Shown piece after piece: positions 36,294-46,944 of a stretch of 64,000 bases of DNA; the first letter of the stretch is position 1, and each line of letters starts with the position of its first letter. The notes below the pieces were generated by a model. The model searched no databases, was not told the DNA's origin, and saw nothing but the letters and a program-made list of their open reading frames with translations. Origin of the DNA: an uncultured Clostridia bacterium (GTDB lineage: Bacteria > Bacillota > Clostridia > TANB77 > CAG-508); NCBI GenBank assembly GCA_948777935.1, contig CAQDYY010000002.1, positions 43,251 to 107,250 of the forward strand. The letters are read 5' to 3'. Made by a program: the position numbers and the translations under genes.

Positions 36294-37346
36294 TTATTTA
36301 TACCTATCTTGAATTTCTTTTATTTCATCATAACTATTATTCAAAATATCTAAAAATACATCAGCAAGTTTTGGATCAAACTGAGTACCTTTACATCTTT
36401 CAATTTCAGAGGCAACCACCTCAAGAGGCAAAGCATCACGATAAGTTCTTTTAGAAGTCATAGCGTCAAAAGTATCTGCAATAGCTGCTATACGAGCAAA
36501 ATAAGGAATATCTTCTCCCTTTAATTTTGCAGGATATCCATTACCATCATATTTTTCATGATGATGTTTAACGATAGGAATAATATTTTGAAAAATAGTA
36601 GCATTTGATAAAATGTGAGCACCAATTGTAGGGTGGTTCTTAATTTCAGAATACTCATCATCCGTAAGCTTACCTTCCTTTAGCAAAATACTATCAGGAA
36701 CACCAATTTTGCCAATATCGTGGAACAAACCTCCAATTTGAAGAACCTTTAAATCCTCATCAGGTAACCCTAAATGTTTACCAATTAACACACTAAACTC
36801 AGAAACACGATCAGAATGACCACGAGTATAAGTATCCTTTGCCTCTACAGTATAGCGTAATGTTTGTATACTTTCCATATAAGCGCGTTCCAATTTATCA
36901 TATGTATCTTTTAACTCATCATTAATCTCTTTAATAGTATTCATTTGTGAAATAGCCTTAATACCAGACTCAATAAGTAATAATAATTGATCAAACTTAT
37001 CACTCTTTTCGCAATAACCTTGAATATCAAGCCTACGTATAGTCTCCAAAGGAGGAGCTAAATCTTTATGACCAGTTAGTAATAAAATGTATAATTCTTT
37101 ATTAAATTTTCTAATTTCTTCAACAACTTGATCACCATGAATAGGAGTCATAATAAAATCTAGAAGCATTAAATCAAAATGTTCATTTTTTACTTTCTCA
37201 ATAGCTTCCATTGGATCAGTAACTCCAGTAAACTCATAGCCAGAACGTTTTAAAAAAATAGAAAGAGAATCAATAATTCCTTCTTCATCATCAACTACAA
37301 TAATTTTATAGCCATTAGAAGGATTAGCCATATTACCTTTTCTCAT
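36294..37346 (-). CDS. Response regulator: receiver domain plus HD-GYP phosphodiesterase domain.
   Basis: REC: KIIVVDDEEGI..DLMLLDFIMTPIHG. HD-GYP: GHSDRVSE, GLFHDIGKIGVP, HHEKYDGNGYP. ATG 37346 is preferred over GTG 37355. Confidence 0.8.
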   Translation of the reverse strand: MRKGNMANPSNGYKIIVVDDEEGIIDSLSIFLKRSGYEFTGVTDPMEAIEKVKNEHFDLMLLDFIMTPIHGDQVVEEIRKFNKELYILLLTGHKDLAPPLETIRRLDIQGYCEKSDKFDQLLLLIESGIKAISQMNTIKEINDELKDTYDKLERAYMESIQTLRYTVEAKDTYTRGHSDRVSEFSVLIGKHLGLPDEDLKVLQIGGLFHDIGKIGVPDSILLKEGKLTDDEYSEIKNHPTIGAHILSNATIFQNIIPIVKHHHEKYDGNGYPAKLKGEDIPYFARIAAIADTFDAMTSKRTYRDALPLEVVASEIERCKGTQFDPKLADVFLDILNNSYDEIKEIQDRYK

Positions 37347-37435
37347 AAGTTTCACCTAAATCCTTTCTTAGTACACATTATATTAATAAAAAACAATAAA
37401 ATCAATAAAAATGCTAAAATATGTTATATTTTGGT

Positions 37436-45400: not shown

Positions 45401-46944
45401 GAACGGTCTAACATAATACCTACAATAGAATTATTTGTAACACCATTTTGGCTTAAACGATAAGCTAAACTATTTGCTTTTTTATTTAAAGTTTCATAAT
45501 CCATATCTTGCCCTTGAAAAGTAATAGCAACATTATTAGGATGCATGTTTACTTGCTCTTCAAAATAAGAAATAAAAGGAATATTTTCATCATATTCTAA
45601 ATCTGTATTATTAAATCCATATAAAAGTTCATACTTTTCCTTAGAAGTTACAATTTCAATATTATGCACACACACATCTAAATTATTAAGTACTTGATGA
45701 ATCATATGTAAAATACGCTCATGAATAGCAGAAATTTCTTCTTTATCATATTTATTAACACGATAATCATAAGCAATATTAATACATCCGGTATCATTTA
45801 AATCAAGCAAGTGAATATCTAAATCATCACCACAAGTACCATTAAATATCCAATCAGTATCATAAGATATATTATTTTCTAAATTAGTCTTTGTAATTTG
45901 ATAAGACATAACAACATTATATAAATTAGGTAAATTAGGGTTTTTACTTCTCAAATCCTCTAATATATACTGATAAGAATACTTTTGGTGGCGAAGCATA
46001 CTTAAAGAATCCTTTGCAATATTACATACAAAAGATTTAAAAGTTTGGTTATCTTGCAAATTTATTCTATAAGGTACAATATTAATAAACATACCCATAG
46101 TATTTTTTTCTTTAAAATTAGTTCTATTTAAAATAGGAGTTCCAATTACAAAATCATCTAAATTAGAAACTCTACCAATATAAATTGCATACATAGCCAT
46201 AAAGAAATTAAAAACAGAAACATTTGCATTTTTACAAAAAGCCCCAATGTTTTCTACAATTTCTTTTGGGATAGTATATGTAATACGGTTTGCTTCACAA
46301 GAAAAAGTATCATTACCAGATTTCTTTACAGGAATAGAAGCGGGTTCTGGAATAGTATCAAAAATAGAATTCCAGTAAGCTTTATCTTTATTAAACTTAT
46401 CACTATCAATATATTCTTTTTCAGTTTGAATGTAATTAGAGTAGGAAGAAACTGTGCTAAAATCTGGTTCTTTTCCATCCATTAAATTAGCATAAGTACC
46501 TACTACTTCCTTAGCAATTAAACCTAAAGTCCAAGAATCAGAAATTAAATGGTGTAAATTTGGAATAAATCCACCGCTACCATTTGGAAAGCGGAATAAT
46601 TTAAAATTAAATAATTTTGCATTAGTATCAAAAACATTCTTTACAAAATCATTTTCTACCTTAACAAGTTCTTCATCTGTCAAAACATCAGCTATTTCTA
46701 TATCAAAAGGTTCATAATCTGCTATATATTGTTTTATTTCGTTATTTTCCATACACAATCTAATATTGAAACTCTCATTATGTTCTACAACAAGATTAAT
46801 AGCCTTTTTCAACAAATCAAAATTTACAACCTCATGTATAAAAGCAACTCCACCAATATTATTAATACTAGAACCTTTAAAATACTGTTCTGTAATAAAA
46901 ATAGACTTTTGTGGTGCAGTTAAATCAAATAGATTTTTCCCCAT
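39490..46944 (-). CDS. Bimodular NRPS, C-A-T-C-A-T-R (terminal thioester reductase), 2484 aa.
   Basis: C1 HHLISDSW. A1 LIYTSGSTGLPKGV, YKTGDLG, GRSDNQVKLRGLRIELGEIE, PNGKTDRK. T1 FFSIGMDSL. C2 HHIICDGLS. A2 VMYTSGSTGNPKG, YKTGDLARW, GRIDNQVKICGFRIELNEI. T2 FFDLGGDSLGAM. R LLSGFTGFLGAHIL and YIKSK. Confidence 0.9.
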   Translation of the reverse strand: MGKNLFDLTAPQKSIFITEQYFKGSSINNIGGVAFIHEVVNFDLLKKAINLVVEHNESFNIRLCMENNEIKQYIADYEPFDIEIADVLTDEELVKVENDFVKNVFDTNAKLFNFKLFRFPNGSGGFIPNLHHLISDSWTLGLIAKEVVGTYANLMDGKEPDFSTVSSYSNYIQTEKEYIDSDKFNKDKAYWNSIFDTIPEPASIPVKKSGNDTFSCEANRITYTIPKEIVENIGAFCKNANVSVFNFFMAMYAIYIGRVSNLDDFVIGTPILNRTNFKEKNTMGMFINIVPYRINLQDNQTFKSFVCNIAKDSLSMLRHQKYSYQYILEDLRSKNPNLPNLYNVVMSYQITKTNLENNISYDTDWIFNGTCGDDLDIHLLDLNDTGCINIAYDYRVNKYDKEEISAIHERILHMIHQVLNNLDVCVHNIEIVTSKEKYELLYGFNNTDLEYDENIPFISYFEEQVNMHPNNVAITFQGQDMDYETLNKKANSLAYRLSQNGVTNNSIVGIMLDRSFEMMISILAVLKSGGGYIPIDPDYPDNRINYMLEDSNCQVLLTKRDLNKDVHCNTVIYVDLNQDFYLNNTTNLKSISKPYDLSYLIYTSGSTGLPKGVMLTQKSLANFHHAMRKRISYLTDNVKYRIASITTVSFDIFAFETLISLANGLHLFMTDNFEQKSTEHLEKLVANNKIEIIQTTPSVMRFHLDNLKDINNFSSLKYIILAGEQLPFDLVQRIKKTCPNCTVYNGYGPSETTIFSSVQDATNLCDINIGKPIANTQFYILDEHKNLLPKHHVGEIYIAGDGLGKGYLAKPDLTDKSFLPNPFCDNSLFYKTGDLGLWLDDGCICCKGRSDNQVKLRGLRIELGEIEEKINSYNPSIKSAVVVRNQNGTDFLYAFIESSEIVDISSLKAFLIACLPNYMVPSYFVILEELPKTPNGKTDRKSLKTYPIPDMTQELEIVPPQNELEEMVFDILADIIGSRYFSMLDDFFSIGMDSLNLIRFAAKIQNEFNIQVSVKELYDFSSIRDFADFLNTAPKSNKIHIKKVNKKDFYTLSSAQKRVYLACKLNPNSVLYNMPGYIKLPENIDIEKLTNCLIKLIYRHDVLRTCFVQENGEIVSKLLSKDDVNFKIDTIQYNCLEDAFADFVKPFSLDNAPLMHCSLVKISNMELYLFLDLHHIICDGLSLNLFIDELCKLYEDTALEPLSISYLDYAEWENTSLQNGSFKNDKDFWVNELSNLPVLNMPLDHVRPERSNYKGNKLFKKIDEQTMKQIYDFCNKVHITPYMFLLACYHVLLSNFCMQEDVIVGSPIANRIPDVTDLLVGMFVNNIVTKSIVKNDISVFDFCMQIKETVLNSFSHQSYPFNELVNDLGLVRESNRNPIFDTMFIYQNENYPAVELKGTVTTVNLIPTNISKFDFSFEIVPQEYDCDLNIEYATDLWESSTIESLADTYLQIICEMLKDKNRKLGELDLVNNEQQNLILNKFNNTKTVYPNSASLHSLFEEQVKKTPNHIAVVYENESLTYEQLNRKSNQLAHYLRANGITKESIVCILLDKSLEMIIAILGILKAGGAYLPIDVNYPKNRIDYMIRDSASKMLLTNLEFVEKSNSTIQSICIDLTNENIYSDNENIENLDDLNTSTDLGYVMYTSGSTGNPKGTMIEQKSIIRLVENTNYITFTEHTAILQTGSIVFDACTFEIWGALLHGCELHLIKKSNLLDTSCLETYLITHNIHTLWLTAPLFNQLCEDNPHMFSHVHYLLTGGDVLSPKHINMVRVANPNLQVINGYGPTENTTFSCCFPITKTYNSNIPIGYPISNSTCYVVSSSGKLLPVGFAGELWVGGDGVARGYLNNPELSSQKFIKNPFAEGRLYKTGDLARWLPDGSVEFLGRIDNQVKICGFRIELNEISSTILEYTGMKECATVVQLLNDEKTICSYFVASSKVDISSLKTYLKTKLPTYMLPVHMMQLDKLPINTNGKIDKHALPTNFKKDLRSRICQKPKNEIEEKLLKIYQKLLKDTDISVTDSFFDLGGDSLGAMKIEIEALSMGLSVRYADIFKYPSIRELANCINTTPNVETSQVLDYSKYDTILKKNSLDKVTNMPYTSMGNVLLSGFTGFLGAHILDSFIKKETGNIYCLIREKNNMSAMDRLKNVLHFYFNDKYDKYIGKRIFLVEGDITFDNLGLDDDEYKKLGHTITTVIHSAAMVKHFGIFSEFEAVNINGTKRIIDFCEDFDLRLLHISTISVSGNALAEQSFVEHNFKEDKNFRENDFYIGQNIENLYIKSKFEAECLVFDAILRGLKAYVLRMGNLTSRFTEGKFQQNHFENAFVNRFKSILQIGYAPDYLLDSYVEFTPIDFCGDAIIALGSHFNENFSVFHLLNEKHVTMDRLFTTLTELGVPLKIVSSDEFVNILDTLLQDEEKKNYLEGIINDLNTDKKLVYDSNIKIKSDFTTAILEKIGFEWPYIDTRYIHNYLKYLADIGYFNIKLN

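Follow-up and report, generated by a model that had tools for sequence, protein, structure and literature searches.

A reductase-terminated nonribosomal peptide synthetase of gut Clostridia coupled to a 7TM sensor kinase that varies with it: a candidate signalling module with an HD-GYP regulator

Why should the gene of a nonribosomal peptide synthetase (NRPS) run straight into that of a membrane sensor kinase, with an HD-GYP response regulator lying behind both? This question is raised by a locus on contig CAQDYY010000002.1 of an uncultured Clostridia bacterium of the mouse gut, which we analysed within a stretch of 64,000 nucleotides (nt) called here the window. Its G+C content is about 27%, and three open reading frames (ORFs) of the minus strand fill exactly the span 36294-46944. 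An earlier note, drawn up from the letters alone, had described them as a dipeptide-aldehyde NRPS "hard-wired" to a seven-transmembrane (7TM) kinase and to a regulator acting on cyclic di-GMP (c-di-GMP). We propose, from these sequences and those of their relatives, that the three genes may form a signalling module in which the 7TM-PAS kinase senses the product of the NRPS encoded beside it and relays the signal to the HD-GYP regulator, a proposal to which we give an even chance. The argument is carried by the linkage of synthetase and kinase across relatives, and by blocks of the synthetase that are exchanged within species together with the sensor half of the kinase. The features of the three genes are as follows, all on the minus strand.

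39490-46944, minus: NRPS of 2484 amino acids (aa), C-A-T-C-A-T-R, TAG stop at 39490-39492 (Pfam and NCBIfam domains, motifs)
45625-46932, minus: N-terminal condensation domain C1, HHLISD (first Pfam Condensation stretch; no T domain upstream)
44110-45573, minus: adenylation domain A1, ten-residue code DIFQIAGIFK (code via alignment)
43855-44055, minus: carrier domain T1, Ser994 (PP-binding; D993 and S994 invariant)
42511-43806, minus: condensation domain C2, HHIICDG (Pfam Condensation, aa 1047-1478; H1174, H1175, D1179 and G1180 invariant)
40990-42450, minus: adenylation domain A2, code DAFWLGGTFK (code via alignment)
40750-40947, minus: carrier domain T2, Ser2030 (PP-binding; D2029 and S2030 invariant)
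39493-40632, minus: terminal thioester reductase domain R, GFTGFLGAH, S2237/T2238, Y2277, K2281 (NAD_binding_4, 151.6 bits)
39478-39492, minus: junction of NRPS stop, kinase ribosome-binding site (RBS) and kinase start, TAGGAGGtttgaaaATG (read in the sequence)
38825-39478, minus: kinase sensor, seven transmembrane (TM) helices, aa 1-218, hypervariable between types in relatives (HisKA_7TM; AlphaFold2 model)
38474-38764, minus: cytoplasmic PAS domain, aa 239-335, variable in some types (PAS_9 below the Pfam cut-off; PAS fold in the AlphaFold2 model)
37682-38470, minus: kinase DHp and ATPase core, aa 337-598, with H371, plus stop; invariant within species (HisKA, HATPase_c)
36294-37346, minus: response regulator of 350 aa, REC at 36975-37304, HD-GYP at 36366-36851 (Response_reg, HD_5 and HD hits)

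By its domain order, its R motifs and its gut origin, the synthetase is a reductase-terminated dimodular NRPS of gut Clostridia. Pfam recognises two Condensation, two AMP-binding and two PP-binding domains followed by a C-terminal NAD_binding_4 domain, and the order C-A-T-C-A-T-R can be read along one polypeptide, so that the architecture given in the earlier note, including its terminal NAD(P)H reductase, holds with Pfam, NCBIfam and core motifs alike. The assignment to gut Clostridia is likewise borne out by the sources of the relatives, which are mouse, rat and human gut metagenomes and metagenome-assembled genomes (MAGs) labelled Clostridia; the window locus was found almost only in mouse and rat gut metagenomes. 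We aligned the NRPS motifs with those of 19 homologs at 43-92% identity (20 sequences). H132/D136 of C1 (HHLISD), H1174/H1175/D1179 of C2 (HHIICDG), the carrier serines S994/S2030, the A10 lysines K937/K1974, and the GFTGFLGAH motif with S2237/T2238-Y2277-K2281 of the R domain are invariant throughout. An inactive R or C domain, which would have spoken against the reading of the earlier note, is thus not what the catalytic residues indicate.

The closest solved structures of the R domain are the peptidyl carrier protein-reductase (PCP-R) of the archaeal NRPS Mru_0351 (6VTJ, E 1e-56) and the aldehyde-forming R domain of AusA (4F6C, E 1e-35), and whether such a domain releases an aldehyde or an alcohol is not readable from sequence (PMC8024701). 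The best NCBIfam match of the whole protein is also to AusA (NF047350, an equivalog family; best stretch aa 349-1464), at 1640.8 bits, below the curated cut-off of 2500 and hence outside that family. C1 matches both LCL-type and lipo-initiation C domains among the sequences of the PDB; we therefore call it a starter domain, as the earlier note did, by its N-terminal position alone. The A2 code is identical to DAFWLGGTFK, listed as a Val code for MlcM (PMC9113097). For the A1 code, as for DIYTVGIILK and DVCYLGGICK, no match was found in the searched papers or in the signature-sequence supplement. On this basis, the synthetase would load one residue X (A1) and valine (A2), its N-terminal C domain would probably N-acylate the first residue, and the chain would be released reductively, most likely as N-acyl-X-valinal. 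An N-capped dipeptide aldehyde cannot cyclise to a pyrazinone, and no pyrazinone would therefore be expected from this product.

At the 3′ end of the synthetase gene (aaattaaatTAGGAGGtttgaaaATG), the NRPS stop codon TAG, part of TAGGAGG, lies inside the AGGAGG RBS of the kinase, as had been noticed before. The kinase ATG at 39478 follows 7 nt beyond this site and 11 nt past the NRPS stop. Because it sits 7 nt after AGGAGG, we take this ATG as the kinase start; the TTG at 39484 given in the ORF listing is probably not the true one. The kinase itself is a member of the HisKA_7TM family (PF16927), with a 7TM region at 121.6 bits (cut-off 28.6) and intact H, N, G1 and G2 motifs in its core, and Pfam further reports PAS, HisKA and HATPase_c domains. 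H371, N500/N504, D534/G536/G538 and G559-G563 are invariant in an alignment of homologs. No REC or HPt domain was found with Pfam, so this is not a hybrid kinase. Its AlphaFold2 model (mean pLDDT 74) comprises the 7TM region (aa 3-218, with helices at 3-23, 30-59, 63-90, 97-114, 137-165, 170-190 and 200-218), the PAS domain (239-335), a DHp hairpin (337-444) and the ATPase domain. No solved structure was matched by the sequence of the 7TM part, and a fold search with the full-length model returned matches to the PAS domain and kinase core and none to the 7TM part.

The regulator has the acidic pocket and phospho-acceptor Asp of a REC domain (VVDDEE, LLDFIM) followed by an HD-GYP domain in which the motifs FHDIGK and HHEKYDGNGYP are intact. 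It is thus an RpfG-type HD-GYP response regulator, whose output, as proposed earlier, is not a DNA-binding domain. Its start is most likely the ATG at 37346, which gives 350 aa and agrees with the called gene P0242; its score against the NCBIfam NosR family (202.9) is under the cut-off of 400. The gap of 335 bp between kinase and regulator (37347-37681) contains a 150-bp palindromic repeat, resembling a miniature inverted-repeat transposable element (MITE), and a promoter-like site:

37485-37635, minus: palindromic MITE-like repeat with a terminator-like hairpin, between kinase and regulator (sequence reading)
37377-37405, minus: promoter-like site TTGATT-17-TATAAT upstream of the regulator (consensus scan only)

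As read from this gap, the regulator is its own unit, outside the tight operon that NRPS and kinase form. In one relative, L084, the repeat is missing and the gap measures 124 bp.

How general is this arrangement? Searching metagenome contigs with the 7TM and PAS region alone gave 80 loci, of which 74 had at least 900 bp upstream and 68 at least 1.5 kb downstream. In all 74 the kinase directly adjoins an R domain of an NRPS, and no HisKA_7TM-family kinase of this search was found without an NRPS (0/74). A REC-HD-GYP gene lies downstream on the same strand in 64 of the 68, after a gap with a median of 185 nt and a range from 87 nt to 5.9 kb, the largest gaps holding inserted cassettes. Starting from the synthetase, homologs at 92, 62, 57, 51 and 48% identity are followed by the kinase after 7-16 nt in every context; starting from the regulator, three homologs, whose choice took no account of synthetase or kinase, are each preceded by an NRPS-kinase pair (3/3). 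A search of genome contigs with the full NRPS alignment keyed on the generic motif YTSGSTGxP and returned mostly unrelated NRPSs; its informative loci were L001 (NRPS 39%, kinase 54% identical) and L048, two distant lineages that keep the NRPS-kinase pair in a different neighbourhood with no regulator. Most loci occupy one chromosomal position (HtrA ... regulator-DUF975-Tex-ABCF-CorA), with Tex 74-82% identical. The synteny on which the earlier note had staked its reading is thus kept, and its "hard-wired" is apt for synthetase and kinase; it does not extend to the regulator, a separate unit 87 nt to 5.9 kb away. Since adjacency is universal for the NRPS-kinase pair alone, we regard this pair as the core unit and the regulator as a regular but looser partner.

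Does the sensor vary with the synthetase? Evolutionary rates differ greatly along the locus. On average, pairs of loci are 81% identical in Tex, 82% in REC, 77% in HD-GYP and 69% in the kinase core, a figure that falls to 55% in the 7TM region, 51% in PAS, 52% in R and 52% in the starter C domain. Among the loci, at least 20 combinations of A1 and A2 specificity codes occur, and similar codes are found in either module. Contigs whose flanks are 96-100% identical in nt were counted as the same species, and such contigs can carry different types of the locus. In same-species type pairs, kinase core and regulator are 99-100% identical, and A1 is 35-44%, R 42-99%, 7TM 53-91% and, in some pairs, PAS about 50% identical. 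The replaced blocks of the NRPS and kinase aa 1 to about 335 (7TM with or without PAS) are alleles of some 35-80% identity within a species. In ten same-species type pairs the differences fill kinase aa 1 to about 335 and drop to about zero from about 340, where the DHp helix begins.

These replacements need not be contiguous. In sliding-window comparisons of L095 with L122 and of L122 with L126, both the A1 core (about 58-69% nt identity) and the 7TM region (about 66-79%) are replaced, and the 4 kb or so between them (C2-A2-T2 and most of R) is 96-100% identical; L118 and L156 show the same non-contiguous replacement of A1 and sensor. Within species, 7TM identity is 0.53-0.58 at an A-code Hamming distance of 7-8, 0.62-0.67 at 4-5, 0.81-0.91 at 3 and 0.74-1.0 at 0 (Spearman -0.86, n=11 non-independent pairs). 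Across 36 non-redundant haplotypes, the A1/A2 codes of the nearest neighbour by 7TM differ at 1.2/1.0 positions (p<=0.0005); taking the neighbour by kinase core instead gives 3.1/2.0, and pairing at random 4.9/4.4. A more radical exchange is seen in L171/L172, a close relative, where the flanking genes are the same and the regulator is 90% identical to that of the window. There the synthetase (3640-9902) has one module, a C domain followed by A-T-R, called as two overlapping ORFs, and the kinase has 661 aa. From residue 343 onward its core matches that of the window at 78% identity, and its N-terminus of about 400 aa is unrelated, with HAMP and no HisKA_7TM. Altogether, an allelic block spanning synthesis gene and sensor, with conserved core and regulator, was found among relatives in four species groups with 2-5 types each.

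Contig depth in metagenomes shows a step at the same place. In four gut metagenomes, 36321-38425 (kinase core and regulator) is covered 2-5 times as deeply as 38426-47266 (sensor and NRPS), the step at about 38425 coinciding with the boundary between sensor and DHp. This is consistent with several co-resident strains or species that share the conserved half and not the type of the window. As to expression, contigs from mouse-gut metatranscriptomes, from relatives about 93% identical, cover the NRPS, with DNA carry-over being possible, and one metatranscriptome contig spans the NRPS-kinase junction (38997-39627). In one run, a contig over the regulator alone (36264-37354) is deeper than NRPS and kinase.

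A polymorphic block that covers a synthesis gene and the sensor half of a kinase, and that ends at the kinase core, is the signature of agr and comQXP, and we therefore read the locus as pherotype-like. The earlier note had allowed that the kinase senses the product or a signal sensed with it; as the sensor co-varies with NRPS specificity within species, sensing of the product itself is favoured. The proposed sequence of events would then run as follows. The kinase would be made from the NRPS mRNA, and its 7TM-PAS sensor would recognise the lipophilic product in or at the membrane, as a signal of autoinducer type or an autocrine one. Phosphate would then pass from the kinase core to the REC-HD-GYP regulator encoded nearby, which would in turn change the hydrolysis of a cyclic dinucleotide, most likely c-di-GMP. 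NRPS specificity and sensor would be exchanged together as allelic types, with kinase core and regulator fixed. Product structure, product sensing, phosphotransfer, and the substrate and output of the regulator are here what we infer from sequence. More tentatively, and with somewhat less than even confidence, we suggest a wider view in which NRPS-made N-acyl dipeptide aldehydes are strain-specific autoinducers with co-evolving 7TM receptors and an HD-GYP enzymatic output, acting primarily as kin-discrimination signals.

Several observations weigh against a module in which the product is sensed. Within species, the association rests on about eight type changes in four species groups, and a 2x2 count of haplotype pairs (6/1/1/3) is not significant taken alone. 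The species group of the window was seen in one type only. Two pairs are discordant: between L120 and L158 A1 is replaced and the 7TM region is still 91% identical, and L126 and L154 share their A1 code with a 7TM identity of 74%. Moreover, loci of other species with the codes of the window have 7TM regions just 50-63% identical. Family-wide, with the kinase core controlled for, covariation with the 7TM region is 0.47 for R, 0.43 for T2, 0.40 for A2, 0.33 for C2 and 0.14 for A1; being strongest with the adjacent R domain and decaying with distance, it is explicable by plain physical linkage. The variation data come from metagenome contigs, in which assembly chimeras are possible. The downstream end of the module raises difficulties too. 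A regulator is absent within 2-9 kb downstream in four loci and in L001, no GGDEF motif was found in the window or in the loci, and at its gathering threshold Rfam found neither a c-di-GMP riboswitch nor any other family in the window. The HD-GYP domain aligns over its full length to PmGH, a c-di-GMP phosphodiesterase (4MCW, E 1.8e-41), and as well to the cGAMP-specific V-cGAP3 (5Z7C, E 1.5e-43). As the two match equally well, c-di-GMP is put forward as the most likely substrate among c-di-GMP, 3′3′-cGAMP and pGpG, a choice that sequence does not settle. Finally, no exporter gene lies nearby.

Some of these points would fit better with a product that acts outward, as an inhibitor of host or competitor proteases, the kinase sensing an unrelated cue. 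Co-transcription would then mean co-regulation, and the variability of the sensor would reflect hitch-hiking or a diversifying selection of its own. Such a product would agree with the protease-inhibitor role given in the literature (PMC12327764, citing Guo 2017 and Schneider & Balskus 2018), with the decay of covariation over physical distance, with the two discordant pairs and with identical A codes accompanied by divergent 7TM regions in different species. It is harder to reconcile with this view that in at least three type pairs the A1 and sensor blocks are replaced together across some 4 kb of near-identical sequence, that the boundary between sensor and DHp is sharp in every type pair and in L171, and that A1 codes, 5 kb away, are predicted better from the closest haplotype by 7TM than from the closest by kinase core. 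The joint movement of the NRPS-kinase pair into unrelated neighbourhoods also speaks against it. We judge this explanation, the main rival of our reading, to be rather unlikely.

Sensor and product would be equally expected to co-vary if the kinase served self-protection, monitoring the aldehyde load of the producer's own membrane, or protease or envelope stress, rather than density, and acting via the HD-GYP domain. Translational coupling, which gives one kinase per synthetase transcript, the lack of an encoded exporter and an HtrA-type envelope protease as a frequent divergent neighbour would suit such a role. This protease is, however, missing in L084, L089, L173 and L175, frameshifted in the lineage of the window, and placed outside the variable cassette with 96-100% identity within species; allelic types within a species are moreover more typical of cell-cell discrimination than of self-monitoring. 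On balance a feedback role seems improbable. Lastly, the gene order might be inherited from a single event in the forebear of one gut clade, in which an NRPS landed ahead of a two-component system with housekeeping duties, the two having no functional link. The single chromosomal position of most loci, in related organisms with Tex 74-82% identical, would be expected from such inertia; a coupling of 7-16 nt that persists in other neighbourhoods and where NRPS identity has fallen to 33-39%, the absence of any 7TM-family kinase without NRPS among the 74 loci and the joint exchange of sensor and NRPS would not. This last explanation is already disfavoured, and we hold it very improbable.

Beyond the three genes, no gene for a phosphopantetheinyl transferase (PPTase), an MbtH protein, a membrane transporter or exporter, or a tailoring enzyme was found among the roughly 50 ORFs of the window scanned with Pfam, in agreement with the earlier note; the nearby ATP-binding cassette (ABC) protein is of the ABC-F type, without a membrane domain. 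An apparent truncation of Tex proved an artefact of start-codon choice, the ORF being of full length (716 aa). The conserved neighbour on the other side of the NRPS is the following gene:

47225-48363, plus: HtrA-like serine protease (Trypsin_2 and PDZ), divergent from the NRPS, outside the variable cassette

It is divergent upstream of the NRPS in many relatives. In the window it is split by a frameshift into an ORF of 52 aa with a membrane anchor (47225-47383) and a Trypsin_2-PDZ ORF of 306 aa (47443-48363). The same split occurs in the independently assembled relatives L080-L083, and the gene is intact (371-375 aa) in L085 and L087; the split form is either a pseudogene peculiar to this lineage or a protease without its anchor. 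As it is not always present, frameshifted here and outside the variable block, we set it aside as a resistance or target gene. In the divergent intergenic region between NRPS and HtrA, a G+C-rich hairpin, GGGGGCGATTATAAATCGCCCGC, with no Rfam match lies at 47007-47030, inside what is likely the 5′ leader of the NRPS.

The repeat found between kinase and regulator is one of four intergenic copies of a G+C-rich palindromic element of about 150 bp (36078-36225, minus; 37485-37635, minus; 48441-48588, minus; 61330-61481, plus), two of which bracket the regulator gene. Its ends are AGAACCCCC...GGAGGGTTCT, its two small internal hairpins differ between copies by compensatory changes, and its 12-nt seed occurs four times against 0.02 expected. 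In metagenome and transcriptome contigs its depth is 10-100 times that of neighbouring genes, which points to many genomic copies or to high expression. Rfam assigned it no family and gave only sub-threshold matches to hairpin (miRNA) models; for this reason, we treat it as a MITE-like palindrome and not as an RNA family. A YhgA-like (Transposase_31) gene at 59672-60682 (plus) adjoins the fourth copy. Other insertions lie between kinase and regulator in relatives. In L089, a cassette at 19321-23720 carries a radical-SAM/PqqD gene, suggestive of ribosomally made, modified peptides, with a small ORF, an ABC ATPase and a major facilitator superfamily (MFS) transporter, and like insertions give kinase-to-regulator gaps of 4-6 kb in L095, L097, L122 and others.

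Elsewhere in the window, a putative integrated mobile element (about 7100-28500) adjoins a tRNA-Lys gene (6999-7074) and splits genes that are adjacent in L171 (VanW/G5 ... CorA). It encodes a phage-type integrase (7173-8321), a resolvase (15269-15976), an AAA_25 protein and DUF4314, and has many minus-strand ORFs of no known family and a strong negative GC skew. Two papain-family (Peptidase_C1) cysteine protease genes lie in it, at 18455-19492 (minus) and 19505-20215 (minus). Gut dipeptide aldehydes reportedly inhibit this class of protease, according to Guo and co-workers in 2017, and the meeting of the two in one window is probably a coincidence. Further on, a Cadherin-like-domain protein (51049-52644, plus) is followed by a surface protein of 2211 aa with Big_3 repeats (52660-59295, plus), in which antisense ORFs recur every 1.1 kb or so (55284-57460), a sign of long tandem repeats inside it. 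Finally, overlapping genes for a nucleotidyltransferase substrate-binding, HEPN-like protein (48709-49116, plus) and a Pol-beta-type nucleotidyltransferase (49106-49444, plus) have an arrangement typical of HEPN/MNT toxin-antitoxin pairs, which they may represent.

How does the proposed module compare with known systems? The type of NRPS is itself already known, and what would be new is an NRPS-based, pherotype-like circuit of Rpf style in gut Clostridia. Reductase-terminated dipeptide-aldehyde NRPSs of gut Clostridia are said to have been reported in Cell by Guo and co-workers in 2017, and ruminopeptin (rup) of Ruminococcus bromii by Schneider and Balskus in 2018. The synthetase of the window resembles them in its gut Clostridia source, its C-A-T-C-A-T-R order, its terminal NAD(P)H reductase and its predicted N-acyl dipeptide aldehyde. 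It differs in that, for those, the literature searched gave no account of allelic types, of a sensor kinase serving as a dedicated receptor or of an HD-GYP regulator, Guo et al. 2017 lying outside that literature. They are discussed there as sources of inhibitors of host or bacterial proteases (PMC12327764, citing Guo 2017, Schneider & Balskus 2018). Few small-molecule pathways of the gut microbiome are cited as often as the NRPS clusters that end in a reductase. A co-exchanged sensor would offer them a testable native function, namely signalling to self or kin that feeds second-messenger control, and alleles of synthetase and sensor that occur naturally in pairs, on a background identical in other respects, are a ready experimental system. 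If the wider view holds, molecules widely cited as inhibitors of host proteases would primarily be kin-discrimination signals between bacteria.

The aureusimine (phevalin, tyrvalin) synthetase AusA of Staphylococcus aureus is likewise dimodular, with an aldehyde-forming terminal R domain and one valine-type module. In contrast to the NRPS of the window, it is organised as A-T-C-A-T-R without a starter C domain, its free dipeptide aldehyde cyclises to a pyrazinone, and it has no adjoining kinase or regulator. That products of aldehyde-releasing peptide pathways can be autoinducers is a likeness offered by Gram-negatives, where leupeptin-derived pyrazinones act as autoinducers in Klebsiella oxytoca (PMC11480411) and AI-3 and DPO are pyrazinone/pyrazine autoinducers (PMC8895600). 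These are pyrazinones or pyrazines, however, whereas the predicted N-acylated product of the window would form no pyrazinone. To our knowledge, no co-encoded, co-varying receptor kinase accompanies the Gram-negative compounds.

Closer in its wiring is the Rpf/diffusible signal factor (DSF) system of Xanthomonas, with the synthase RpfF, the multi-TM sensor kinase RpfC and the REC-HD-GYP regulator RpfG. RpfC and RpfG are a quorum-sensing pair (PMC8895600). In both systems a gene for a proven or putative signal synthase adjoins that of a polytopic sensor kinase, the partner of which has REC and HD-GYP domains and not a DNA-binding one. The synthase of the window is, however, an NRPS and not a crotonase-family enzyme, its kinase has neither REC nor HPt and carries a sensor of 7TM and PAS in place of the input domain of RpfC, it belongs to a Gram-positive lineage, and the locus is polymorphic, with allelic types. 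With no RpfF-type crotonase and no RpfC-type hybrid kinase, the locus is not a member of the Rpf/DSF family and shares Rpf-like wiring only. If our reading is correct, it would be a Gram-positive counterpart of the Rpf/DSF-HD-GYP circuit, and would provide a candidate class of ligands for the uncharacterised HisKA_7TM sensor domain.

In its variation, the locus is closest to agr (AgrB-AgrD-AgrC) and comQXP, in which a hypervariable block covers the signal gene(s) and the sensor half up to the conserved kinase module, and the regulator is conserved. Here too, the within-species block covers a signal-making gene, as we propose it to be, and the membrane half of a sensor, and leaves kinase module and regulator conserved. 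The signal of the window would, however, be nonribosomal, and its regulator is an HD-GYP enzyme rather than a LytTR or NarL transcription factor. If true, the pherotype principle would thus extend from ribosomal peptides to the products of NRPSs.

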